Program-made: the position numbers and the translations under genes
Notes under the pieces: model-generated
Seen by the model: the letters and a program-made list of their open reading frames with translations, nothing else
Database searches by the model: none
What the model was told of the DNA's origin: nothing
Origin: Candidatus Tayloriibacteriota bacterium
Lineage (GTDB): Bacteria > Patescibacteriota > Minisyncoccia > Phycocordibacterales > PALSA-1337
Direction of reading: 5' to 3'
Assembly (NCBI GenBank): GCA_003151615.1
Contig: PLXZ01000004.1
Location: 1-44,117, forward strand
DNA length: 44,117 nt
Part shown: piece by piece, positions 11,213-23,760 of the stretch
How the letters are laid out: each line of letters starts with the position of its first letter
How positions within the stretch are numbered: the stretch's first letter is position 1

Positions 11213-11326
11213 GCCGAAATCATCGCATACTGCCGATAGAGAAACGCTGAAGTTTTGCTAAAATAACGATAAAATTTCGCAAAGAAAACAATCGATGCCG
11301 ACAAAGAGCTGTGGTATAATAATTTC

Positions 11327-12457
11327 ATGGCTTTTTCCTTTACTTCATTGTTCGGTTCGAAAGACCAAAGCGTTCTCGGCATTGACGTCGGCTCGTCGTC
11401 GGTCAAAGTCGTCGAGATAAAAAAGAAGCGCGGCCGCGCGGTCCTGAAAACGTACGGGGAGCTCGCTCTCGGTCCGTATGCTTCGACCGAAGTGGGTCGC
11501 GCGACCAATCTTCCGCCGGACAAAATCGCCGAGGCGATAAAGGACATTCTCCGCGAAGCGAAAACGACCTCGACGGCCTGCGGCATCGCTTTGCCGTTTT
11601 CATCGAGTCTCATTTCATTCATCACCATTCCGCCGGTTCCCGAAAAACAATTGGCCGAAGTCATTCAGCTGGAAGCCCGCAAATACATTCCCGTTCCGAT
11701 GAACGAGGTTCTCCTCGACTGGTCGCTCATTCCGCGCGAGGACAATTATGCAAACGAAGAGGAAGATGATGACGGAAAAAGCGGCGCGAAGGAAAATAAA
11801 GGGGGTAAAGCCCAGCAGGACGTTTTGGTTGTCGCGATCCACAACGAATTTATCGCTTCGTACCAGCAGATCATGGCAAACTCCGGGCTTCAGCCGACCT
11901 TTTATGAAATAGAAATATTCAGCGCGATCCGCGCGGTCGTCGAGCAGGGCGTTCAGGCCGTCATGATCCTCGACATGGGCGCGCGCGCCACGAAACTCTA
12001 CATAGTTGAGCGCGGCATACTGCGTACGGCGCACATCATAAACAGGGGAGGCCAGGACATCACCCTCGCCGTTTCAAAATCGCTTTCCGTCACCGTTGCC
12101 GAAGCGGAGAACATGAAACGGCTGTACGGCCTGTCCGGCGGACCGGAACATAAAGACCTCGCCAATATAATCATGACCAACCTCGACTACATTTTTTACG
12201 AATCGAATGCGGCTCTTCTCAATTACCAGAAAAAGTACGGTAAAAATGTGGCAAAGGTCATCCTGACGGGCGGCGGCGTCCTGCTCAAAGGCTTTGCGGA
12301 CATAGCGAAAGTCAGTTTTCAGACCGATATTTTCTATGCAAATCCCTTTGGAAAGATGGAAACGCCGGCATTTTTCGAGCAGCAGCTTCGTGAGGCGGGT
12401 CCGGAATTCGCGGTCGCCATCGGCATTGCCTTGCGTCGCTTGTCGGAGACGCAATAG
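11327..12457 (+). CDS. pilM: Type IV pilus assembly protein PilM
   Basis: LGIDVGSSSVKVVE, EARKYIPVP, ILTGGG, AVAIGIALR. Confidence 0.93.
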   Translation: MAFSFTSLFGSKDQSVLGIDVGSSSVKVVEIKKKRGRAVLKTYGELALGPYASTEVGRATNLPPDKIAEAIKDILREAKTTSTACGIALPFSSSLISFITIPPVPEKQLAEVIQLEARKYIPVPMNEVLLDWSLIPREDNYANEEEDDDGKSGAKENKGGKAQQDVLVVAIHNEFIASYQQIMANSGLQPTFYEIEIFSAIRAVVEQGVQAVMILDMGARATKLYIVERGILRTAHIINRGGQDITLAVSKSLSVTVAEAENMKRLYGLSGGPEHKDLANIIMTNLDYIFYESNAALLNYQKKYGKNVAKVILTGGGVLLKGFADIAKVSFQTDIFYANPFGKMETPAFFEQQLREAGPEFAVAIGIALRRLSETQ

Positions 12458-12489
12458 GGTTATATAATGAAAGGGAATATATAGAGAAT

Positions 12490-13101
12490 ATGGAAACTAA
12501 ATTTCAAACGTCGTTCATACCAAAAAAGCCCATTCTTGCGCAGACTTCCGTTGCGCACTCCGGTCCGGGCATAAACCTGTTCACGATGTTTTCCGTTCTC
12601 GTTTTCATTCTCTCCCTTGCCGGCGCGGGCTTTGTCCTCGTCTACCAGAACTACCTTAATAAAACCCAGGCCGAATATCAGCAGACCCTGCAGGCCAATG
12701 AAAATCAATTCAATCCGACCCTCATCGCCACGCTCCAGCGCGCAAGCGACAAGATAAATACCGCCAACACCCTTCTTTCGGATCATCTTGCCGTTTCGAA
12801 GGTGCTCAACATCATTGCGGCGCTTACCGCGCAAAATGTCACTTTCAGCAGCTTGTCATATACGGCTCCGGCGACCCCGGGCAGTCCCGCCTTGATTTCA
12901 ATGAGAGGCACCGCCAACAGTTTCAGCGACATTGCCTTCCAATCCGATGTTTTCGGTTCGGCCATAGATTACGGAACCAACGTGAAAATTGTCACTCCGA
13001 TATTGTCGAATCTCGGCCTTGCCCAGAACGGAGGCGTTACGTTCACCTTTACTGCCGGCATAAATCCATCCGATATCCTGTACAACAAATTCATACAATA
13101 A
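12490..13101 (+). CDS. pilN: PilN-like protein
   Basis: FQTSFIPKK N-terminus, TM, coiled coil. Follows pilM. Confidence 0.7.
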   Translation: METKFQTSFIPKKPILAQTSVAHSGPGINLFTMFSVLVFILSLAGAGFVLVYQNYLNKTQAEYQQTLQANENQFNPTLIATLQRASDKINTANTLLSDHLAVSKVLNIIAALTAQNVTFSSLSYTAPATPGSPALISMRGTANSFSDIAFQSDVFGSAIDYGTNVKIVTPILSNLGLAQNGGVTFTFTAGINPSDILYNKFIQ

Positions 13102-13107
13102 ATTTTT

Positions 13108-13677
13108 ATGAACAAAAATGTAATTCCAATTATTCTCATCGTCCTCGCCATCGGAATTTTCTATACGTTCACGGATTCGCGCATCGGCGCCATTCAGGCA
13201 ACGGCGGCATCCAACGGCGGTTATCTTTCCGCGATCAATAATTCCGTGGAGCTTATCAGCGAGCGTGATGCGGTTCTGAAACAATACAACGCCATCTCTC
13301 CTTCGGATCAGTCACGCCTCAATACGATGTTGCCCGATAATGTCGACAATGTCCGCCTCATAATTGACATTAACGGCATAGCGGCGCGCCACGGTTTCTC
13401 CCTGCAGGGTATCACGACAAGCGCAGATTCGACGACTGCGAACGGCAGCACCGGCGGCCTGTCGGAAAGTTCGGGCGGAACCGATTCCAATAATCATTAC
13501 GGAGTGGTCACTATTTCGTTCAGTTTCACCGCCTCCTACGACAATTTCCTGGCATTCATGCAGGATGTTCAGTCGAGTTTGCGCATTTTGGACATTTCAC
13601 AAATGACCGTTACCACCGGTTCGACTCCCGGCACCTATACGTATTCGATGCAGCTCCAGACATACTGGCTTAAATAA
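13108..13677 (+). CDS. pilO: PilO-like protein
   Basis: TM, MLPDNVD, ASYDNFLAFMQDVQSSLRILDI. Synteny. Confidence 0.75.
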   Translation: MNKNVIPIILIVLAIGIFYTFTDSRIGAIQATAASNGGYLSAINNSVELISERDAVLKQYNAISPSDQSRLNTMLPDNVDNVRLIIDINGIAARHGFSLQGITTSADSTTANGSTGGLSESSGGTDSNNHYGVVTISFSFTASYDNFLAFMQDVQSSLRILDISQMTVTTGSTPGTYTYSMQLQTYWLK

Positions 13678-13686
13678 AACCATTAT

Positions 13687-14049
13687 ATGAATCAATCAAT
13701 TAAAGCTCAAAAATCAAGACTTCCGGAAATAATAGCCATTCTCCTGGTTATTGGGGCAATCGGCTACTATTTTTACTCTTCGGGTTCAAACGGTTCGGCA
13801 TCCTCTTCCTTCACCATTTCCTCGGCAACGTCGAGCGTAGGGGCAAACGTCCTCGGTCTCCTCAACCAGATACATTCGCTGAAAATAGACGCGTCGCTTT
13901 TCCAGTCGCCGGTGTATCAATCCCTGAATGACTTCACCGTGCAGGTTCCTCCCGAGCCGATCGGCAAGAGCAATCCGTTCGTGGCCGGCGGCGCAGGCGT
14001 CAGTCCCGCTTTCACCGCGTCGACTTCTTCAACCACTGCGGGGCGTTAG
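13687..14049 (+). CDS. Small pilus-associated membrane protein (PilP position)
   Basis: N-terminal TM and GKSNPF motif. Lies between pilO and pilB. Confidence 0.6.
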   Translation: MNQSIKAQKSRLPEIIAILLVIGAIGYYFYSSGSNGSASSSFTISSATSSVGANVLGLLNQIHSLKIDASLFQSPVYQSLNDFTVQVPPEPIGKSNPFVAGGAGVSPAFTASTSSTTAGR

Positions 14050-14072
14050 TTTCGGCATGTAATATTTACATT

Positions 14073-15791
14073 ATGAGCGTCCTTGATACACTTCTCGAAA
14101 AAAAACTGATAACCAAAGACGACTACCGTGAGGTCAAGAAACAGACCACCACGGGAAAGATCTCCCTTGACCAGGTTTTGGTCGCCCGCGGCCTCAAGCC
14201 GGAGGATATTTTGGCCGCGAAAGGCGAATCCCTCAACATCCCGGTCCGGTCGCTCGGCGACGTCAGCATTCCTTTTGAAGTTCTCGAATATATTCCGCAG
14301 GAATCCGCCGTCCATTATAAATTCGCGCCGATTGCGGTGAAGGACGGCACGCTCGAAGTGGGTATCGTCGATCCGGACAATATCGAAGCCCGCGACGCCC
14401 TTAACTTCATAGCGGCGAAAAGCAACATTCCCTATAAGATTTTCCTCATAAGCGAAGATGATTTCAAAAAAGTCCTCGATACATACAAAGGCCTTTCGGG
14501 AGAAGTTTCGAATGCTCTGAAGGAACTCGAAACAGTTCTCTCCGTCGACGGGGATTCGGGAGTTGACCTGAAGCAGAGCAAAGCCGACGAAAAAACAAGC
14601 GCATTCATTATCGAGGACGCCCCGGTGGTCAAAATTGTGGCAACAATCGTCCGTTACGCGACGGAAGGGGACGCATCCGACGTGCATATAGAAGCAATGC
14701 GCGACAAAGTCCGCGTACGTTTCCGCGTCGACGGCATTTTGAACACCAGCCTCATTTTGCCTCCGCAAGTCCACGATGCCGTAGTTGCCCGCATCAAAGT
14801 GCTCTCCAACATGAAGCTCGACGAGCGCCGCAAGCCGCAGGACGGCCGCTTTTCCGCGCGCATTGACGGCCGAAAAATCGATTTCCGCGTTTCGACGTTT
14901 CCGGCGTACTACGGGGAAAAAGTTGAAATGCGTATCCTGGATCAGGAACGAGGCGTTAAAAAACTGGAGGAACTTGGTCTTTCCCAAAAAAATCTCGATT
15001 ATGTGAAAGACGCAATCAACCGCCCGTACGGCATGATTCTCATCACCGGTCCAACAGGTTCCGGAAAATCAACGACCCTCTATTCCATGCTCAATGCCGT
15101 CGACCGCGAGAGCTACAACGTGCTTTCCCTTGAAGACCCGATCGAATACAACATGGATGGCGTGACGCAGTCCCAGGTTCATCCTGAAATCGGATACACG
15201 TTTGCGTCCGGATTGCGCACGACATTGCGACAGGACCCCGACATCATCATGGTGGGCGAGATCCGCGACAAGGAAACCGCACAGCTCGCCGTGCAGGCGG
15301 CGTTGACCGGCCACCTCGTATTTTCAACGCTCCACACCAACAATTCCGCCGGCGTCATTCCGCGTCTCATCGACATGGGTGTCGACCCGTACCTAATCGC
15401 GCCTACTCTCATTTGCGCCATCGGCCAACGTCTCGTTCAGACTCTGTGTCCCGGTTCCGGCAAGCCGATTCCGGTTGAAGGCAGCATCAAGCTCATGATC
15501 GACAAGGAATTCGCGGATCTGCCCGCGCAATACCGCGCCGAAATCCCGTTTTCCAATACGGTGTACGAAGCGTCGCCGACTCCCGAATGTCCGAAAGGCG
15601 TCCGCGGCCGCATGGCCGTATGGGAAGTCTTCAAGATGGACAAGGACATCGAAGGAGCAATACTTAAAAATCCCACGGAACTTGAAATTTCACGCCTGCT
15701 CCGCACAAAGGGCATGCTCACCATGAAGGAAGACGCCCTCATCAAGGCCTTCCAGAAAATAATTCCGTTTGAGGAAGTCAATAAACTCTAG
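14073..15791 (+). CDS. pilB: Type IV pilus assembly ATPase PilB (GspE/PulE family)
   Basis: ASDVHIE, GPTGSGKST, LRQDPDIIMVGEIRD, GHLVFSTLHTN. Confidence 0.93.
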   Translation: MSVLDTLLEKKLITKDDYREVKKQTTTGKISLDQVLVARGLKPEDILAAKGESLNIPVRSLGDVSIPFEVLEYIPQESAVHYKFAPIAVKDGTLEVGIVDPDNIEARDALNFIAAKSNIPYKIFLISEDDFKKVLDTYKGLSGEVSNALKELETVLSVDGDSGVDLKQSKADEKTSAFIIEDAPVVKIVATIVRYATEGDASDVHIEAMRDKVRVRFRVDGILNTSLILPPQVHDAVVARIKVLSNMKLDERRKPQDGRFSARIDGRKIDFRVSTFPAYYGEKVEMRILDQERGVKKLEELGLSQKNLDYVKDAINRPYGMILITGPTGSGKSTTLYSMLNAVDRESYNVLSLEDPIEYNMDGVTQSQVHPEIGYTFASGLRTTLRQDPDIIMVGEIRDKETAQLAVQAALTGHLVFSTLHTNNSAGVIPRLIDMGVDPYLIAPTLICAIGQRLVQTLCPGSGKPIPVEGSIKLMIDKEFADLPAQYRAEIPFSNTVYEASPTPECPKGVRGRMAVWEVFKMDKDIEGAILKNPTELEISRLLRTKGMLTMKEDALIKAFQKIIPFEEVNKL

Positions 15792-15803
15792 TATACTAAA
15801 GCC

Positions 15804-16211
15804 ATGAATCCAGAAAGCACCAAAGCAAAACTGACCATTTTCGTAGTCGATGACGACAAATTCCTTCTCGACATGTACGCCCTGAAGTTCTCGAAAAGCG
15901 GCTACGTGGTCGAAGCGGCCGACAACGGGGAAGACGCGCTGAAGAAATTCCGCGGCGGATTCGCTCCCGACATTCTCCTTCTCGACGACATCATGCCGGG
16001 TTTGACCGGACTGGAAACGCTCGAGGCCGTCCGCAAGGAAAATCTCATCCCCAACGCGACCGTCATCATGCTCACCAATCAGAATGCACCGGAAGACATC
16101 GCCCGGGCGAAAAGATGCAATGTCGACGGATATATCGTGAAGGCCATGGCCATCCCGTCCGAAGTCCTGAGCGAAGTCGAGAGGATCAACACGGCCAAGC
16201 AAAAAAAATAA
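15804..16211 (+). CDS. Single-domain response regulator (CheY-like receiver)
   Basis: VVDDD, LLLDDIMPG, MLTN, YIVK. Confidence 0.9.
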   Translation: MNPESTKAKLTIFVVDDDKFLLDMYALKFSKSGYVVEAADNGEDALKKFRGGFAPDILLLDDIMPGLTGLETLEAVRKENLIPNATVIMLTNQNAPEDIARAKRCNVDGYIVKAMAIPSEVLSEVERINTAKQKK

Positions 16212-16215
16212 ATAT

Positions 16216-17274
16216 ATGGAACATAAAAAAGAATTGGAGGACATTGTCACGACGGTCATCAGGGAGGGAGCATCGGATCTCCATCTTACGGAAGGCCGCG
16301 TGCCGTTTATCCGTTCCGCCGGCGAACTTATTCCTCTTGTAAAAAAAGCCGCTCTGACAAACTCGGATTTGAAGGGTTTTCTCGATGAATTCCTGACTCC
16401 CGCGAACAAAATTCGCTTGGAAAAGGACAAGCAGGTTGACTTTTCATACAGCCTGACCGACGCGCGTTTCCGTGGCAACGCCTATTATCGCCAGGGACTC
16501 ATTGCCATTGCTTTGCGCCTCATTCCGAAAAAAATCATGAGCATTGCCGATCTCAACCTCCCGCCGATTTTGGAAACCTTCACCAGAAACCGCCAGGGAT
16601 TCTTTTTGGTGGTGGGGCCGATCGGCCAGGGCAAGACGACGACGCTCGCCGCCCTCATTGAAACAATAAATCAGACCCGTTCCGAGCACATTTTGACGAT
16701 TGAAGATCCGATTGAATATTTGTATGAATCGAAAAAATCCATCATCGACCAGCGCGAGGTTCTGATCGACACGCCTGATTTCAAGGACGCTCTCGTCGGC
16801 GCCTTGCGCGAGGATATTAACGTGATTCTCGTCGGGGAAATGCGCGACGCGGAGACGATGGCGACAGCCGTGACCGCCGCGGAAACGGGACATCTTGTTT
16901 TTTCGACGCTCCACACGAACAATGCCGCACAGACCATCAACCGCATCATCGACTCGTTTCCTCAGGGCCAGCAGGACCAAATTCGCGTTCAGTTGGCTAG
17001 CTCGCTCACCGGCATTTTCTCGCAACGCCTCATTCCGCGCGTTTCAGGAGGCCTCATTCCCGCCTACGAGCTTTTGATCAATAACGCCGCAGTATCCAAC
17101 CTCATCCGCGAAAAGCGCATTCACGAAGTCGGCACGGTCATCGAAACTTCCTCGACCGAAGGCATGATTGACATGAACCGATCTCTCGCCGACCTCGTCC
17201 GCCGCGGACAAATAACCGTGGAAAACGCCTATCTTCATTCCGTAAATCCGAAAAACCTCGAGAGGCTGATATAA
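16216..17274 (+). CDS. pilT: Pilus retraction ATPase PilT
   Basis: ASDLHL, GQGKTTT, EDPIE, GEMRD, AAETGHLV, VSNLIRE. Confidence 0.93.
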   Translation: MEHKKELEDIVTTVIREGASDLHLTEGRVPFIRSAGELIPLVKKAALTNSDLKGFLDEFLTPANKIRLEKDKQVDFSYSLTDARFRGNAYYRQGLIAIALRLIPKKIMSIADLNLPPILETFTRNRQGFFLVVGPIGQGKTTTLAALIETINQTRSEHILTIEDPIEYLYESKKSIIDQREVLIDTPDFKDALVGALREDINVILVGEMRDAETMATAVTAAETGHLVFSTLHTNNAAQTINRIIDSFPQGQQDQIRVQLASSLTGIFSQRLIPRVSGGLIPAYELLINNAAVSNLIREKRIHEVGTVIETSSTEGMIDMNRSLADLVRRGQITVENAYLHSVNPKNLERLI

Positions 17275-17298
17275 TGGGGAAGTCACTTCAAAAAACAC

Positions 17299-18507
17299 AT
17301 GCTTTTTAATTACACAACCGTAGACGAAAAAGGCTCATCGACCAGCGGCTCCATTGACGCGGTCAATGCCGATATCGCAATTGCGTCCCTCCAGCGCCGC
17401 GGACTGACCATCACCTCGATCCACAGCGCCGACGAGAAAAAATCCCTGCTGACGATGAACATTAGCTTCTTCGACCGCGTATCAAACAAAGACGTGGTGA
17501 TTCTCTCGCGCCAGCTGTCCACGCTGTTTCAGGCGCAGGTCTCGGCGCTTCGCATTTTCCGCCTTCTCGGTTCCGAATCGGAAAACAAGATTCTCGGCGC
17601 GAAACTCACCACCATCGCCGACGATCTTCAGAGCGGCTCGTCCATATCGCAGGCCATTTCAAAACACCCGAAGGTCTTCTCCGAATTTTACGTTAATATG
17701 GTGAAGGCCGGAGAAGAGACGGGAAAATTGGACGAGACGTTTGCCTTCCTCGCCGATTATCTCGACCGAACCTACGAATTGGTGTCGAAGGCCAAGAGCG
17801 CCCTCATCTATCCGGCGTTCGTTATCGTGACGTTCGTGTCGGTCATGCTCCTCATGTTCACGGTCGTCATCCCGAAAATCGCCGCAACTCTGACGGATTC
17901 CGGCCAGGCCATTCCGGTGTACACGCAGGCGGTTTTGGATATCAGCCAGTTTCTCATCAATGACGGATTCTTTCTTTTGGCTGCGGTGGTCATTGCCGGC
18001 TATTTTTTCTGGCGTTACGTCCGAACGCCGACCGGCAGGCTCGCGTTCGACACCTTCAAACTGAAGATACCGTACATCGGCACATTGTATCGGAAACTGT
18101 ATTTGTCGCGCCTATCGGACAACATGAATACCATGCTCGTGTCCGGCATTCCAATGATACGCGCGCTGGAGCTGACGTCCTCGGTTATCAGCAATATGGT
18201 GTACCGAAACATCATTTCCGAAGCCGTTGAGTCGGTGAAGGGCGGCAAACCCGTTTCCGAAGCTCTCGGCAATAACCGCGAAATTCCCGGAATCATGATT
18301 CAGATGATAAAAGTGGGCGAAGAATCAGGGGAATTGGGCAATATTCTGAAAACACTGGCTAAATTCTATTCCCGCGAAGTTTTGACGGCCGTGGATAACC
18401 TGGTTGATTTGATTGAACCGGCCATGATCGTTCTTTTGGGCATTGGCGTGGGCATATTGCTCGCATCGGTTCTCATCCCTATTTACAACGTCGCCGCGGC
18501 CCAGTAG
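17299..18507 (+). CDS. pilC: Platform protein PilC (GspF family)
   Basis: SRQLSTL, GEETGKLD, ALIYPAFV, GEESGEL, IEPAMI. Confidence 0.93.
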   Translation: MLFNYTTVDEKGSSTSGSIDAVNADIAIASLQRRGLTITSIHSADEKKSLLTMNISFFDRVSNKDVVILSRQLSTLFQAQVSALRIFRLLGSESENKILGAKLTTIADDLQSGSSISQAISKHPKVFSEFYVNMVKAGEETGKLDETFAFLADYLDRTYELVSKAKSALIYPAFVIVTFVSVMLLMFTVVIPKIAATLTDSGQAIPVYTQAVLDISQFLINDGFFLLAAVVIAGYFFWRYVRTPTGRLAFDTFKLKIPYIGTLYRKLYLSRLSDNMNTMLVSGIPMIRALELTSSVISNMVYRNIISEAVESVKGGKPVSEALGNNREIPGIMIQMIKVGEESGELGNILKTLAKFYSREVLTAVDNLVDLIEPAMIVLLGIGVGILLASVLIPIYNVAAAQ

Positions 18508-18527: not shown

Positions 18528-18616
18528 TAAGCGTCTTGCACCTTTATTGGCCGTTCTTGCTATAATTACCCGTATGAGATTAGGTTTATAGATTATTTAT
18601 TAATTTTATTTAAAGT

Positions 18617-19138
18617 ATGAAATTCAACATGTTCAGAAAAAACACATTGCGCGACACGAAAGTGGCCGGTTTCAAGGGCGGCTTCACCCTCATCGAACTT
18701 CTCGTCGTCATCGCAATTATCGGTATTTTGTCTTCAATCGTTTTGGCCAGCTTGAGTACGGCGCGATCGAAGGCCAACGACTCGAAGGTTCAAGAACAAC
18801 TTTCCGGTTTGAGAAGCGCGGGTGAGATTTACAATTCTACTAATGGAGGGTACGCGACTGATTCTTCAACACATACAGGAACTACCGTTGCTGCGTGTGA
18901 AGGTCTATCGACTACACTTTTCTCTGATCCAACTTCGGGTGCCCTTGGTATCTTGAATGGTATTGCAAGCACGACGGGTATCGGTACGGTTAGCTGTGTA
19001 GCAAGCAGCACAGCTTGGGCTTTCGAAGCAGTTCTTCCTTCCAACCCTAGCACGAACCCATCATGGTGTGTTGATAGCACAGGCAAGTCTGAGGGACAAC
19101 CTACTGTTACTGTGACAGCAAGTCAGCTTTGTCATTAA
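18617..19138 (+). CDS. pilA: Type IV pilin (copy with promoter and ATG)
   Basis: G|FTLIELLVVIAIIGIL class III signal, four Cys in the variable domain, last gene of the pil cluster. Confidence 0.9.
   Translation: MKFNMFRKNTLRDTKVAGFKGGFTLIELLVVIAIIGILSSIVLASLSTARSKANDSKVQEQLSGLRSAGEIYNSTNGGYATDSSTHTGTTVAACEGLSTTLFSDPTSGALGILNGIASTTGIGTVSCVASSTAWAFEAVLPSNPSTNPSWCVDSTGKSEGQPTVTVTASQLCH
18637..18773 (+). repeat. Left arm of pilin inverted repeat (pairs with 20714-20838)
   Basis: Outer 26 bp identical (AAAAAACACATTGCGCGACACGAAAG), then 7 substitutions and one 12-bp indel by manual alignment. Confidence 0.92.
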
Positions 19139-19162
19139 TTCCCAAATTAGTTTATTTTTTGA

Positions 19163-19200
19163 ATAAAAATCCCGGCATATGCCGTGATTTTTGTATGTGT
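19163..19200 (+). terminator. Terminator after pilA
   Basis: AAAAATC-CCGGCATATGCCG-TGATTTTT hairpin, related to 20310-20354. Confidence 0.65.
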
Positions 19201-19275
19201 GAGTTATCCCCAACTTTATCAAAATTTTATTCTTTCTTGAGCGTTTCTTCATTGTTGTATTGCTAAGCTGGTTAT

Positions 19276-19680
19276 GTGAAAACGGCAAAGAAAAATTATA
19301 AACAGTGGCACGTAGTCAAAGTAAAGGTAAACGACGCTGAACATGCACATGTTTACTTCAAAGAACGTGAAATTTGGTGGTGCTATTGCGGAGCAAATAT
19401 TGGTATGGAAGAGGATGGAAAAGGCGATCAGTTTAAGAGGCCGTTTCTCATCTTCAAAAAATTTAATAAACGACTCTGCTGGGCAATCCCGCTTTCGACC
19501 CAAGTCGCAAGAGGATCTTTTTTCTTTTATCTGTTGGCCGAGTCAAATATAATCCGTATGGCTATAATGCCCCAAATGCGCATGATTGATTCGAAACGAC
19601 TGATAAAAAAGACAGACATCATTTCTATGACGGAATACGGATTTATAAAAGAAAAAATCACCAAAGAATTTCTCCGGTGA
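19276..19680 (+). CDS. PemK/MazF-family toxin, no adjacent cognate protein antitoxin recognised
   Basis: FKEREIWWC..GANIGMEEDGK...RPFLI...AIPLST...QMRMIDSKRL. GTG start. Confidence 0.85.
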   Translation: MKTAKKNYKQWHVVKVKVNDAEHAHVYFKEREIWWCYCGANIGMEEDGKGDQFKRPFLIFKKFNKRLCWAIPLSTQVARGSFFFYLLAESNIIRMAIMPQMRMIDSKRLIKKTDIISMTEYGFIKEKITKEFLR

Positions 19681-19731
19681 CTTTTTCTAATATCTGAAAC
19701 AATTTTCATTGTTCCGAGCCTTGCGGCCAAT
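19647..19731 (-). ncRNA. Putative small RNA convergent with and overlapping the pemK 3' end
   Basis: Minus-strand TTGACT(19765-19760)-16nt-TAGTAT(19743-19738). Hairpins GGCC-GCAA-GGCT and GGAACAAT-GAAA-ATTGTTTC, then an 18-bp terminator stem whose G-U pairs work only on the minus strand. Confidence 0.55.
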
Positions 19732-19829
19732 ATATACATACTAGCAAAAACAAAAATATAGTCAAGTAATTTTTAGAAAATAAAATGAACATAGTTGACC
19801 GACAAAAATTTGTGACATATCATGAGGGT

Positions 19830-20072
19830 ATGAAATCGTATACGTATCGCATAATCATTAAAAAAGACGAGAAATCTTTTCACGCGTACGTTCCGGCGCT
19901 TCCCGGATGCCATAGTTTTGGCAAAACCGTGTCGGACGCGCGCAGACACATCCGTGACGCCATAAAGACGTATATTTTGAGTCTTATCGATGACAAGCAG
20001 AAAATTCCGCACGACGAAAATATGGAATCCGTTGAGACTATTTCTATTTCGCTGAAGCCGTCATATACCTAA
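19830..20072 (+). CDS. hicB: HicB family antitoxin
   Basis: AYVPALPGCHSFGKTVSDARRHIRDAI. Confidence 0.88.
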   Translation: MKSYTYRIIIKKDEKSFHAYVPALPGCHSFGKTVSDARRHIRDAIKTYILSLIDDKQKIPHDENMESVETISISLKPSYT

Positions 20073-20292
20073 ATTAAAAAGCGTCAAACCGCGCGAACTT
20101 GTTCGCATGCTTCTAAAACTTGGCTGTATCGAGAACAGACGACACAGTGGCAGTCACTTGATTATGAAGCATTCAGATGGTCGCCGAACAACTGTACCCA
20201 TTCATTCGGGACGAGACATTCCAAGAGGGACTTTGTTGGCGATTTTGCGAGATATTCGAGTTTCAAAAGATGATTTTTTGGCGAATTTATAG
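20065..20292 (+). CDS. hicA: HicA family toxin; natural start position reads ATA (possibly attenuated or a pseudogene)
   Basis: Frame from 20065 reads (I)PKLKSVKPRELVRMLLKLG...HSGSHLIMKH...TTVPIHSGRDIPRGTL. Confidence 0.8.
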   Translation: MPKLKSVKPRELVRMLLKLGCIENRRHSGSHLIMKHSDGRRTTVPIHSGRDIPRGTLLAILRDIRVSKDDFLANL

Positions 20293-20309
20293 GCACAAGA
20301 GACGGAGAA

Positions 20310-20354
20310 TACACAGACAAAAAAACCGGCATGTGCCGGTTTTTTGTCTGTGTA
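20310..20354. terminator. Long palindromic bidirectional terminator (hicA / second pilin)
   Basis: TACACAGACAAAAAAACCGGCA-TG-TGCCGGTTTTTTGTCTGTGTA. Confidence 0.8.
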
Positions 20355-20372
20355 GACTTTACAAAATTCTGA

Positions 20373-20828
20373 CTAAGGACAAATTGTTGCATTCGCTGCG
20401 AGAGCAGAGGGCTCTGACTTTGAAGAACCATTATTATCAACACACCAGTATGTACCCGATGTGCTTAATGGAGCCGCTGCAGTCCATGTATTTGCTGCGT
20501 CATTACAAGACACTACTGATCCTGATGATACTACATCATGCCCCACACTCGTAGCTCCAGAAGAAGACGCCACACCTAATAGAATTCCAGCGAGTCCTCC
20601 TGCTCCCGCGCTACCCTGACAAAGGCCTGCATAACTATTCGAGCTTGATGCGGCATAGATTTCACCCTGTGCTCGTGCGCCAGATAGACCTTCTTCCGTA
20701 GCCGCATCCTTGCCCTTCGATCGCGCCGTGCTCAAGCTCGCCAATACGATTGACGACAAAATACCGATGATTGCGATGACGACGAGAAGTTCGATAAGGG
20801 TGAAACCGGCCGCTTTCGTGTCGCGCAA
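20373..20828 (-). CDS. Second type IV pilin, inverted, no ATG start (probable silent cassette)
   Basis: G|FTLIELLVVIAIIGILSSIVLASLSTARSK identical to pilA, divergent four-Cys C-domain. Only a TTG at 20828; no in-frame ATG before the upstream stop. Confidence 0.88.
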   Translation of the reverse strand: MRDTKAAGFTLIELLVVIAIIGILSSIVLASLSTARSKGKDAATEEGLSGARAQGEIYAASSSNSYAGLCQGSAGAGGLAGILLGVASSSGATSVGHDVVSSGSVVSCNDAANTWTAAAPLSTSGTYWCVDNNGSSKSEPSALAANATICP

Positions 20829-20838
20829 TGTGTTTTTT
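20714..20838 (-). repeat. Right arm of pilin inverted repeat
   Basis: Reverse-complement match to 18637-18773; perfect 26 bp at 20813-20838. Confidence 0.92.
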
Positions 20839-20924
20839 AGGACGTGATTTGCGGTGTTATAAAAAATGGAAATACTTGTGTTTTTTGTAATAAAAATGCT
20901 ACTATTACTGTAATAAAAGGCGCC

Positions 20925-21284
20925 ATGTCAAAATCTGAAATTATCAAAAAATACGACAAAATTCTCCCGCAAAGAATAACAGTAAGAGTGGAAAAAAATC
21001 AAGACGAAAAAGGATACTGGGCAAAGATTTTGGAACTTCCTCATTGCTATACTCAAGCATCAACAATCAGCGAGTTGGCTGGTATGGTTACTGATGCAAT
21101 ACAAACTCATTTTGAAATCCCTCAATCTTACAGAAAAAATGTCGGGTATTATGTTCCCATATCTGAAAAACATTTTCAATTGGAAGAAATGTTCCGAAAA
21201 CTGGTTTCGATCGAACAAAAAGTTTCAGAAGGAAAAGAAGTTAGAGCCGTATTCCAAAGAGCTGGACAAGGAATGGCGTGTTAG
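20925..21284 (+). CDS. hicB: HicB family antitoxin
   Basis: GYWAKILELPHCYTQASTISELAGMVTDAI. Confidence 0.8.
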   Translation: MSKSEIIKKYDKILPQRITVRVEKNQDEKGYWAKILELPHCYTQASTISELAGMVTDAIQTHFEIPQSYRKNVGYYVPISEKHFQLEEMFRKLVSIEQKVSEGKEVRAVFQRAGQGMAC

Positions 21285-21305
21285 TTTAATTAATAAATCA
21301 GAAGT

Positions 21306-21566
21306 ATGGCAAGATATAGAGGAAAACCAAAGTTGGCATCTTGCTCTCCGAATGACGTCCTCCGCGCTCTTAAAAAGATAGGCGGATTCAACATTCTTGA
21401 GGGAAATAAACATATCAAAGTCGTCCATATAAAAACGGGCAAACCTTCGACGATTCCGAGGCACGAGAAAGTCAATAGACATCTTCTAAGAGATTTTGTC
21501 GATAATTATCTTATACGGGATTTGGGATATTCAGAAGAGACAGTATATGCGCACTTATGGTGTTAA
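21306..21566 (+). CDS. hicA: HicA family toxin
   Basis: DVLRALKKIGGF..EGNKHIKV...TIPRH, directly after hicB. Confidence 0.8.
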   Translation: MARYRGKPKLASCSPNDVLRALKKIGGFNILEGNKHIKVVHIKTGKPSTIPRHEKVNRHLLRDFVDNYLIRDLGYSEETVYAHLWC

Positions 21567-21601
21567 GCCTAAAAGATATCGTGATCTTACTTAATCTACA
21601 C

Positions 21602-21663: not shown

Positions 21664-21740
21664 GAATTAATAATAGCAGATCCAAAATAGCAGTCAAGAA
21701 AATTTGTGCATAAGTTTGCATAATTTGCTACAATCACCGC

Positions 21741-23219
21741 ATGAAAGAAACTGCGGTTGCACAGCCTGCTTCAAAATACATCCCGACCATCGGCTTGGAA
21801 ATTCACGCCGAACTGGCGACGAAGTCAAAGATGTTTTGCTCGTGCAAAAATGATCCGGACGAGGAGAAGCCGAATGTGAATATTTGCCCGGTCTGCATGG
21901 GGCACCCGGGAACTTTGCCGGTGCTCAACAGGGAAGCAATACGGCATGTATTGAAGATGGGGCATGCCGTCGGCGGAACGATTGCGGACTTCACCGAATG
22001 GGACCGCAAAAACTATTTCTATCCCGACATTCCGAAGGGTTATCAAATCAGCCAATACAAACATCCACTTGTTACCGGCGGTGCGGTCGCCGGCGTTTCG
22101 ACTACTCGAATTCATTTGGAAGAGGATACGGCGCAGTCTACACATGACATCAGTGAAAAAAGCCTTGTGAATTTCAATCGTGCCGGCGTGCCGCTCATGG
22201 AGCTTGTGACCGAGCCGGTCATTCACGATGCGTTGACTGCGGGAAATTTTGCGCGCGAATTGCAGTTATTATTACAGTATCTCGGCGCCGGCGAAGCCAA
22301 CATGGAAAAAGGCGAGATGCGCGTGGAAGCAAATATTTCAGTTGCATCGCCTGAAGATACCGCTGCCGGAAAATTCGGCACGAAAACCGAAGTAAAAAAT
22401 CTGAATTCGTTCCGTTCCGTCGAACGCGCAATCGCATATGAAATCGAGCGGCAGGTAAAGCTTATAGAGGCTGGCGAAAAAATTGTCCAGGAAACGCGTG
22501 GCTGGGACGAAGGGAAGCAAAAAACGTTTTCACAGCGTGCGAAGGAAAGCTCCCATGATTACCGCTATTTTCCCGACCCTGACATTCCAAAAATGAAGAT
22601 AAGCGAAGTTCCCGAATTTGCGCCTGCCGCGCTTCAAAAAGACATGCCCGAATTGCCAGCAGCCAAGCGCGCCCGGTACGCCGGGGATTTCGGCATGACG
22701 CCGAAGGAAGTCGCCATGTTTATCGATACGCCCGAACTTTCCGCATATTTTGAAGGCCTCGATTTTAATTCGTCTTCGGAAAAAAAATTGGTGCGTCTGG
22801 CAGTCAACTATCTTTTGACGGATTATGTCGGCCTTCTCAAAAAAGATTTCGGCGAGGCCGATTGGGTCAAAAAAATCGACCGCATCAAGTTGAATCATTT
22901 TGGCGCGCTCGTTCGTCTTGCCCAATCGGGCAAAATCAATTCCCGTGGTGCAAAGGACATCCTCGCGGAACTCTATAGAAATTTCGAAAATCCGGCTGAT
23001 CCCGAAAAAATTGCGGACGAAAAAGGGCTGATCCAAAAAGACATCGACCTGAAACCGATGGTGCAGAAAATTGTCGATGAAAATCCTGCGGTTGTCGCGG
23101 ATTATAAAGCCGGCAAGCAGGCGGCGCTCCAATTTTTCATCGGGCAGGGAATGAAGGTTTCGAAGGGGAGCGCCAATCCTGAGGCCTTAAAAGCCGCATT
23201 TATAGCCGTTTTGGGTTAG
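21741..23219 (+). CDS. gatB: Asp/Glu-tRNA amidotransferase subunit B
   Basis: IGLEIHAEL, RKNYFYPDIPKGYQISQ, RIHLEED, YRYFPDPD. Confidence 0.97.
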   Translation: MKETAVAQPASKYIPTIGLEIHAELATKSKMFCSCKNDPDEEKPNVNICPVCMGHPGTLPVLNREAIRHVLKMGHAVGGTIADFTEWDRKNYFYPDIPKGYQISQYKHPLVTGGAVAGVSTTRIHLEEDTAQSTHDISEKSLVNFNRAGVPLMELVTEPVIHDALTAGNFARELQLLLQYLGAGEANMEKGEMRVEANISVASPEDTAAGKFGTKTEVKNLNSFRSVERAIAYEIERQVKLIEAGEKIVQETRGWDEGKQKTFSQRAKESSHDYRYFPDPDIPKMKISEVPEFAPAALQKDMPELPAAKRARYAGDFGMTPKEVAMFIDTPELSAYFEGLDFNSSSEKKLVRLAVNYLLTDYVGLLKKDFGEADWVKKIDRIKLNHFGALVRLAQSGKINSRGAKDILAELYRNFENPADPEKIADEKGLIQKDIDLKPMVQKIVDENPAVVADYKAGKQAALQFFIGQGMKVSKGSANPEALKAAFIAVLG

Positions 23220-23731: not shown

Positions 23732-23760
23732 GTTGTGTAAATTGTGATACAATTTTCAGT

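Follow-up and report, generated by a model that had tools for sequence, protein, structure and literature searches.

The genome of Candidatus Tayloriibacteriota bacterium (assembly GCA_003151615.1, contig PLXZ01000004.1) carries, directly behind its type IV pilus operon, two convergent pilin genes, pilA1 and pilA2, which share their 5' coding ends as an inverted repeat and enclose a set of toxin-antitoxin genes. We tentatively read this locus as a static pair of alternative major-pilin alleles, of which the second was recently truncated at its 5' end and is silent or weakly expressed, with any exchange between the two going through general recombination; we give this reading a probability of about 0.42. 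The initial annotation of the locus had proposed an invertible pilin switch comparable to that of Moraxella, and we lean rather firmly against a dedicated switch. The window analysed here is the whole stretch of 44,117 nucleotides (nt), the first 44 kb of a 346-kb contig, and the genome has the size expected of a candidate-phyla bacterium (923 kb, 47% G+C, 92% complete). The features on which the argument turns are the following.

18558..18566, forward strand: extended -10 promoter motif of pilA1, TGCTATAAT, 50 nt 5' of the ATG, found by motif scan and conserved in the ortholog on a related contig, L015.
18617..19138, forward strand: pilA1, major pilin of 173 amino acids from the first ATG (Pfam N_methyl, E 2.2e-7), with the motif G/FTLIELL (the slash marks the cleavage site) and a C-terminal Cys pair.
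18637..18780, no strand: left arm of the inverted repeat, holding the 26-mer (18637-18662), a TTG at 18647 and a 12-nt in-frame insertion at about 18671-18682.
19163..19194, forward strand: terminator hairpin after pilA1 with the core CCGGCAtaTGCCG, folding at -14.4 kcal/mol (z -4.7).
20310..20354, no strand: two-way terminator separating hicA from pilA2, folding at about -32 kcal/mol on each strand (z about -9), similar to the terminator of L015.
20373..20828, reverse strand: pilA2, 151 amino acids from a TTG, leader MRDTKAAG/FTLIELL (Pfam N_methyl, E 1e-8), no in-frame ATG.
20707..20838, no strand: right arm of the inverted repeat, in which homology stops at the start of the hicB'A' block, 10 nt upstream of the TTG.

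The order 3' of the operon is pilA1 (+), the hairpin terminator, a PemK-like toxin gene, hicB, hicA and the two-way terminator, followed by pilA2 (-), a weaker HicB/HicA-like pair (+), which we call hicB'A', and gatB. Both pilin copies score above the Pfam N_methyl cut-off (30.6 and 34.8 bits against 21.2), and both carry the cleavage/methylation motif, a hydrophobic helix and the C-terminal Cys pair; together with the pilM, pilO, pilB, pilT, pilC and prepilin peptidase genes of the genome, this identifies them as type IV pilins. The repeat between them consists of an outer arm pair (18637-18674 and 20801-20838; 37 of 38 nt identical, 97%) and an inner pair (18676-18780 and 20707-20811; 105 nt, 90% identical), offset by the 12-nt in-frame insertion in the first copy, which places an extra G-F-K-G ahead of the cleavage site. 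Without this insertion, 8 mismatches are left over 126 aligned positions: six are synonymous substitutions in the helix, one is a V/A change in the leader and one an A/G change at the inner edge. The outer 26 nt of the arms are identical, and no longer exact match exists between them. Homology starts at 18637, downstream of both pilA1 ATGs (18617 and 18629), and the C-terminal bodies share only 38 of 101 aligned residues (41% identity over the whole proteins). The initial annotation had described all of this accurately: the inverted repeat of the convergent 5' ends, the identical outer 26 bp with the six synonymous helix changes, a second copy without an ATG whose homology begins inside the ATGs of the first, the divergent C-terminal domains, and a terminator after each pilin, both of which fold as hairpins.

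The likeness of the arms exceeds what protein constraint explains, because 25 of the 33 residues identical between pilA1 and pilA2 also agree in their codon, whereas the eight pilin paralogs of the genome form 27 further pairs, of which none exceeds 10 of 16. This is also the only inverted pair in the genome that lies within 20 kb and reaches at least 100 nt and at least 90% identity. A search for further copies of the 26-mer, which the initial annotation had suggested, returned exactly the two known copies in the 923-kb genome at up to three mismatches (the reversed-pattern control gave 0), and the idea that the 26-mer is a recombinase target repeated elsewhere was rejected accordingly. The 12-nt insertion in pilA1 (window 18668-18685) is an observation in its own right: it duplicates the G-F of the cleavage site (AGFKGG/FTLIELL) and yields two candidate cleavage sites, and it is lineage-specific, being absent from pilA2, from L015 and from the related proteins P0122-P0126.

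A close relative is L015, the one contig that a search for exact 20-mers retrieved from metagenome contigs; among species-representative genomes, degenerate patterns of the leader gave 0 matches and then two chance ones (Planctomycetota and Methylococcales). L015 carries, in order, pilC, a near-identical promoter and 5' untranslated region (UTR), a pilin, one two-way terminator, a convergent pilin remnant, a PemK-like gene and gatB, with nucleotide identities to the window of 81% in pilC and 83% in gatB, that is, a background divergence of 17-19%. Its first pilin has the same leader (MKFNMFRKNTLRDTKVAG) and a pilA1-type body, and its remnant comprises the last 35 codons of a pilin on the opposite strand, abutting the PemK-like gene, which gave no nucleotide match (blastn) to the PemK-like gene of the window. 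Since a convergent pair is found in both the window and L015, it is older than the divergence of these two lineages. Both lineages carry a shortened second copy, broken off at different points and each time beside different cargo in the same slot (hicB'A' at window 20839-21598, a different PemK-like gene at L015 762-1186), and therefore the abrupt outer end of the repeat can be a plain insertion or deletion breakpoint. Over 126 nt the distances between the arms form a star (8 differences between pilA1 and pilA2, 9 between pilA1 and L015, 6 between pilA2 and L015), and because the arms thus resemble each other no more than orthologs do, no special recombination site is required to account for the 26-nt identity. 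The leader and helix would simply be very conserved at the nucleotide level in this clade. The initial annotation had regarded the leader as normally fast-evolving, which does not hold here, as L015 keeps the 26-mer and the entire 5' UTR with no or almost no change.

The wider comparison covered the pilC loci of 20 relatives, of which 3 belong to the same genus, 16 to the same family and 1 to the same order. All 20 carry one to three major-pilin genes 3' of pilC, all in the same direction, and a translated search found a convergent pilin or a minus-strand remnant in none of these 20 loci; two minus-strand motif matches (L023:210 and L027:225) were rejected as pilins, being short frames antisense inside pilC. 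The first pilin is of the pilA1 type in one sister species (65% identical) and of the pilA2 type in another, G001 (60% identical to pilA2 and pilC-proximal there), and therefore the two bodies behave as alternative alleles of the pilC-proximal site. A relative of another genus, G004 (locus L030), has a direct tandem pair in which 29 of 31 codons agree at the 5' end but 32 of 104 residues in the body; alike 5' ends with unlike bodies can therefore arise without inversion.

At the window itself, the promoter motif and 5' UTR of pilA1 are kept in the L015 ortholog, the UTR almost identically, and the identical pilA1 protein, read from the second ATG, is recorded on two contigs (P0121); further orthologs are P0122-P0124 and P0126. 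A consensus promoter and terminator scan missed this conserved promoter and both hairpins and was excluded as evidence. The first start codon in the pilA2 frame is the TTG at 20828, which is common to both copies (18647 in the left arm). Among 102 pilin-like frames of this genome and the relatives' loci, 99 have an in-frame ATG, and pilA2 is one of the three that do not and the only one that depends on TTG; in this count, 12 of 15 frames flagged at first have an ATG 2-3 codons before the cleavage glycine, outside the range of 4-40 codons. Among the approximately 38 start codons inspected in the window, that of pilA2 is likewise the only TTG, two being GTG and the rest ATG. The nearest TGnTAnnnT motif (TGATAATTT) lies 109 nt upstream, inside hicB'. 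The statement of the initial annotation that no promoter could be found for the second copy stands for a typical promoter nearby, but the upstream motif, perhaps a chance match, qualifies it. Of the two parts that a silent store should lack, the ATG and a nearby typical promoter are indeed missing, but a TTG with a plausible upstream stretch is present. We infer that pilA2 is silent or at best weakly made from its TTG. Its best database relative (P0001) is 72% identical and has its own ATG-led leader; the protein collection returned no entry for pilA2 itself and none above 72% identity, though the pilA1 of the window is present in it.

We propose the following course of events. pilA1 would be the expressed gene, with its conserved extended -10 promoter, AT-rich 5' UTR and ATG, and pilA2 would be a second allele with a different type of body, whose own 5' end was cut off in mid-leader where the hicB'A' block now sits, probably by that block. 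The truncation would have left pilA2 with no ATG and no nearby typical promoter, and hence silent or weakly expressed from the TTG. The shared 126-138 nt would reflect common descent and strong nucleotide-level conservation, with no recombinase site, and the pemK-hicBA cargo between the genes would be a later insertion. The arms could still recombine via RecA, which may give inversion or gene conversion, presumably rarely, with no dedicated machinery.

Several observations weigh against the static pair of alleles. The frame of pilA2 is intact over 151 codons, with the cleavage motif and both cysteines, and its arm is as conserved as that of a true ortholog (6-8 differences per 126 nt, against the background of 17-19%); a long-dead copy would look otherwise, and therefore either the truncation is recent or the copy is in use. 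A swap of coding bodies would need exactly what is found here, namely homology that stops abruptly in the leader, no ATG and both arms in the same reading frame, and the presence of either type of body at the same site in sister species means that bodies move between slots over evolutionary time. The tail of the L015 remnant is closest (20 of 29) to that of P0126, an expressed pilin with this clade's leader from another sample. Finally, the read evidence is shallow, at 2-4x and from contigs only.

The alternative that survives best, although we consider it on the unlikely side, is that pilA2 is an ordinary paralog, transcribed from a promoter in or beyond the 86-nt spacer that it shares with hicB' and translated from the TTG at 20828 with the leader MRDTKAAG, the repeat being the conserved 5' end of related genes. 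A basic leader of eight residues is normal for the family (relatives have MKKG, MKFNKG and MNLRKG), and several pilin paralogs per genome are the rule here. The 10 nt 5' of the TTG (AAAAAACACA) are very similar to the sequence preceding the pilC ATG (AAAAAACAC) and could be the true initiation region of both pilins, and P0126 shares KKTLRDTKVAG with unrelated sequence upstream, which hints at a start near this point. The intact frame, the conserved arm and the motif 109 nt upstream would also fit. However, no other of the 102 pilin-like frames uses TTG, and the upstream motif is at chance level, TGnTAnnnT being expected roughly every 900 nt on each strand (81 in 2 x 44 kb). The absence of a pilA2 entry from the protein collection also speaks against a paralog in ordinary use, and there is no upstream gene on the same strand that could supply transcription by read-through.

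An outright variation device is less probable still, and we regard it as unlikely. Here, the 2.2-kb segment would invert, or pilA2 would convert pilA1, via RecA or a recombinase acting in trans, and the pilus surface, perhaps with host attachment, would change. The geometry, the register, the missing ATG and the abrupt outer boundary fit such a device, as do the codon identity beyond protein constraint and the presence of RecA in the genome, and a crossover anywhere in the repeat would yield an in-frame gene with the pilA1 leader and the pilA2 body. The L015 pilin is moreover a mosaic relative to this genome: at five of six informative synonymous sites in the helix, and in having no insertion, it matches the pilA2 arm, while its body is of the pilA1 type. 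The available text of PMC9881135 ties four sequence attributes to programmed inversions that alter genes, and three of them are found here, namely a repeat length of 102-138 nt (threshold at least 44 bp), a distance between coding sequences of 1234 nt at 19139-20372 (at most 2588 bp) and an asymmetry of 1.0 (at least 0.87), the last resting on very small numbers (u_L = 20, u_R = 0). The fourth, orientation matching, is 0.39 by hand calculation, (20+1234+0)/((20+1234+0)+(358+1234+334)), against a threshold of at least 0.58 in the same text, and speaks against the device. That text also lists 'Pilin' among the enriched targets (odds ratio 8.4) and describes some invertible regions with no recombinase nearby.

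The tests of such a device gave no positive result. The initial annotation had noted that there is no recombinase in the window, which is correct, and had called for a genome-wide search. Piv/IS110 (PF01548, PF02371) had 0 matches in the genome, which is 91.8% complete, while controls matched in 6 of 14 genomes; tyrosine recombinases (PF00589) had a single match on a different contig (C5:148737-149297), and serine recombinases (PF00239) had seven, all large (frames of 443-592 amino acids) and the nearest about 91 kb away at C2:111-113 kb. The shared 38-mer shows no dyad symmetry, 743 of 2000 shuffled versions doing equally well, and the longest exact match between the arms, 26 nt, is near the lower limit for efficient RecA exchange. 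The reads were represented by assembled Logan contigs of four public runs, which give patchy cover of 2-4x and would hide minor variants. These contigs contain no inverted or strand-changing joint; the left 26-mer is spanned, mismatch-free and in the reference orientation, by two contigs that come from different studies (X1 and X6). Five database proteins have a leader of the TLRDTK type, and all five begin a pilA1-type body, the swapped form being found in none. Within the species, the identical pilA1 stands on two contigs, and the comparison of orientation among relatives proposed by the initial annotation showed the same orientation in L015, but there the second copy has decayed, and the layout is absent from all 20 related pilC loci. 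For a body-swap switch that has no recombinase gene of its own and works by a 2.2-kb flip or by conversion, via RecA or via one of the seven large serine recombinases in trans, we see a low probability.

That the second pilin was mis-joined in assembly from the pilA allele of a co-occurring strain is very improbable: the genome is metagenome-assembled, the depth in public runs is low and a palindromic terminator stands at one end of pilA2, but the sequence right of 20838 is unique and shares no word with the region upstream of pilA1, so that no shared k-mer for a join exists, no exact repeat is longer than 26 nt, both 20881-21186 and the hicBA genes are matched perfectly by contigs from other runs, and in L015, an independent contig, a similar terminator is likewise followed by a convergent pilin remnant. 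Readings beyond those considered here receive an equally slight share.

Those members of this bacterial radiation that have been brought into culture live attached to other microorganisms, and such epibionts are thought to use the pilus surface to find and hold host cells. In the available text of PMC11623550, type IV pili are reported to drive attachment in Saccharibacteria. A swap of a stored pilin, if true, would be a first hint of programmed surface variation in the group and of how host range might shift; our literature search found no paper combining Patescibacteria with pilin inversion or phase variation. If pilA2 is a truncated allele, the locus still illustrates allelic turnover of the major-pilin site among sister species and the uptake of toxin-antitoxin genes into the space behind that site.

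The flanks and the cargo of the locus are as follows.

17299..18507, forward strand: pilC, platform protein and last gene of the operon (Pfam T2SSF, E 1.3e-55).
19202..19252, forward strand: conserved upstream element of 45-50 nt, found elsewhere in the genome before dprA, a pilin gene and a secreted-protein gene.
19276..19680, forward strand: PemK/MazF-like toxin gene (Pfam PemK_toxin, E 4.8e-5, 24.0 bits against a cut-off of 23.1).
19785..20072, forward strand: hicB antitoxin (Pfam HicB_lk_antitox, E 4.1e-12).
20107..20292, forward strand: hicA toxin (Pfam HicA_toxin, E 1.2e-16).
20897..20905, forward strand: extended -10 motif of hicB', TGCTACTAT, 19 nt 5' of its ATG, found by motif scan.
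20925..21566, forward strand: second, weaker HicB-like (20925-21284) and HicA-like (21306-21566) pair (Pfam E 8e-4 and 4.2e-4, both below the curated cut-offs).
21741..23219, forward strand: gatB, conserved right flank, named from its translation, 83% identical in nucleotides to L015 over 191 codons.

The pilus operon on the forward strand (11327-18507) comprises pilM, a possible pilN, pilO, an unnamed gene, pilB, a response regulator gene, pilT and pilC, the genes upstream of pilC matching Pfam PilM_2, PilO, T2SSE (twice) and Response_reg. The prepilin peptidase gene (Peptidase_A24, C5:382017-382343, 44.5 bits) lies within a second pilus cluster on contig C5. The pemK-hicBA block (window 19195-20309) is present here and absent in L015, and the comparison shows the space behind pilA to be a probable landing place for toxin-antitoxin genes. 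Another major-type pilin gene of this genome (C2:110521-111105, +) is followed immediately by the convergent gene of a large serine recombinase (111192-112736, -) and by another frame on the minus strand, and this region (C2:110521-113549) looks like a putative mobile element inserted directly behind a pilin gene. Rfam gave three sub-threshold matches only at the locus, all on the terminator hairpins, and no tRNA was found near it.

The upstream element has the core TTTATCAAAAyTTTATTCTTTCTT and stands, over 35-50 nt, 5' of four unrelated genes, including the PemK-like gene; its other copies in the genome are at C2:134437-134487 (-), C3:188-221 and C2:173319-173357, and a 90% match occurs in another genus (G004:C2:34193-34234). 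The dprA gene behind it matches Pfam DNA_processg_A (E 1.6e-61), and the element may serve these genes as a common promoter or operator, perhaps in a regulon for DNA uptake. The PemK-like gene starts with GTG 6 nt after TGCTAAGCT, which is a leaderless layout. In eight genes of the window a TGnTAnnnT extended -10 box ends 6-8 nt 5' of the start codon (for example, 11312-11320, 19261-19269, 21726-21734, 23745-23753, 31296-31304 and 36543-36551), and no Shine-Dalgarno motif was seen 5' of the inspected starts; judged from these layouts, leaderless mRNAs seem to be used extensively in this organism. The genome further contains a dispersed repeat of about 90-115 nt, with 79-90% identity among its copies, which lie in both orientations at no fewer than 11 places (C2:147360, 243379, 258021 and 266516; C3:11856 and 14101; C4:26480, 30971 and 35836; C5:93442 and 375991).

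Among known systems, the Piv system of Moraxella bovis and M. lacunata, with two pilins, a shared 5' part and one promoter-bearing site, is close in layout. The available text of PMC4073114 describes a site-specific inversion that switches between two pilin genes in Moraxella. As there, two type IV pilin bodies are inverted here around about 2 kb, share a 5' coding part and have one promoter-bearing site, the second copy being without a start of its own. The Moraxella-like geometry claimed by the initial annotation therefore holds for the inverted pilins, the shared 5' part and the single expression site, but not for the machinery: unlike Moraxella, the genome has no Piv/IS110 gene, no recombinase lies beside the segment, no orientation polymorphism was seen in contigs of 2-4x, toxin-antitoxin cargo lies inside, and the second copy keeps a possible TTG. 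Because the recombinase is the defining test, the locus does not belong to the Piv type, despite its layout on paper.

Shufflons have several segments with many short repeats between them and an adjacent tyrosine recombinase. In the IncI shufflon (Rci, PilV), according to the available text of PMC9881135, the C-terminal part of a type IV pilin-family protein is swapped behind a constant N-terminus, which alters binding specificity. The present locus, in contrast, has one repeat pair with two copies of the 26-mer and no other close inverted pair, and the sole tyrosine recombinase is on another contig. In Neisseria, promoterless and start-less pilin copies (pilS) serve as a store for pilE and are used via RecA-dependent recombination, and they lack the conserved 5' helix. 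pilA2 would resemble pilS as a store without an ATG or a nearby typical promoter; however, it is one stored copy against many, it keeps the conserved 5' helix, and its transfer was not seen. The tandem pilin paralogs of the same family are alike in lying 3' of pilC and, in G004, in having near-identical 5' ends with differing bodies; those of the relatives run in one direction, each with its own ATG, whereas a convergent, truncated second copy belongs only to the present locus and L015.

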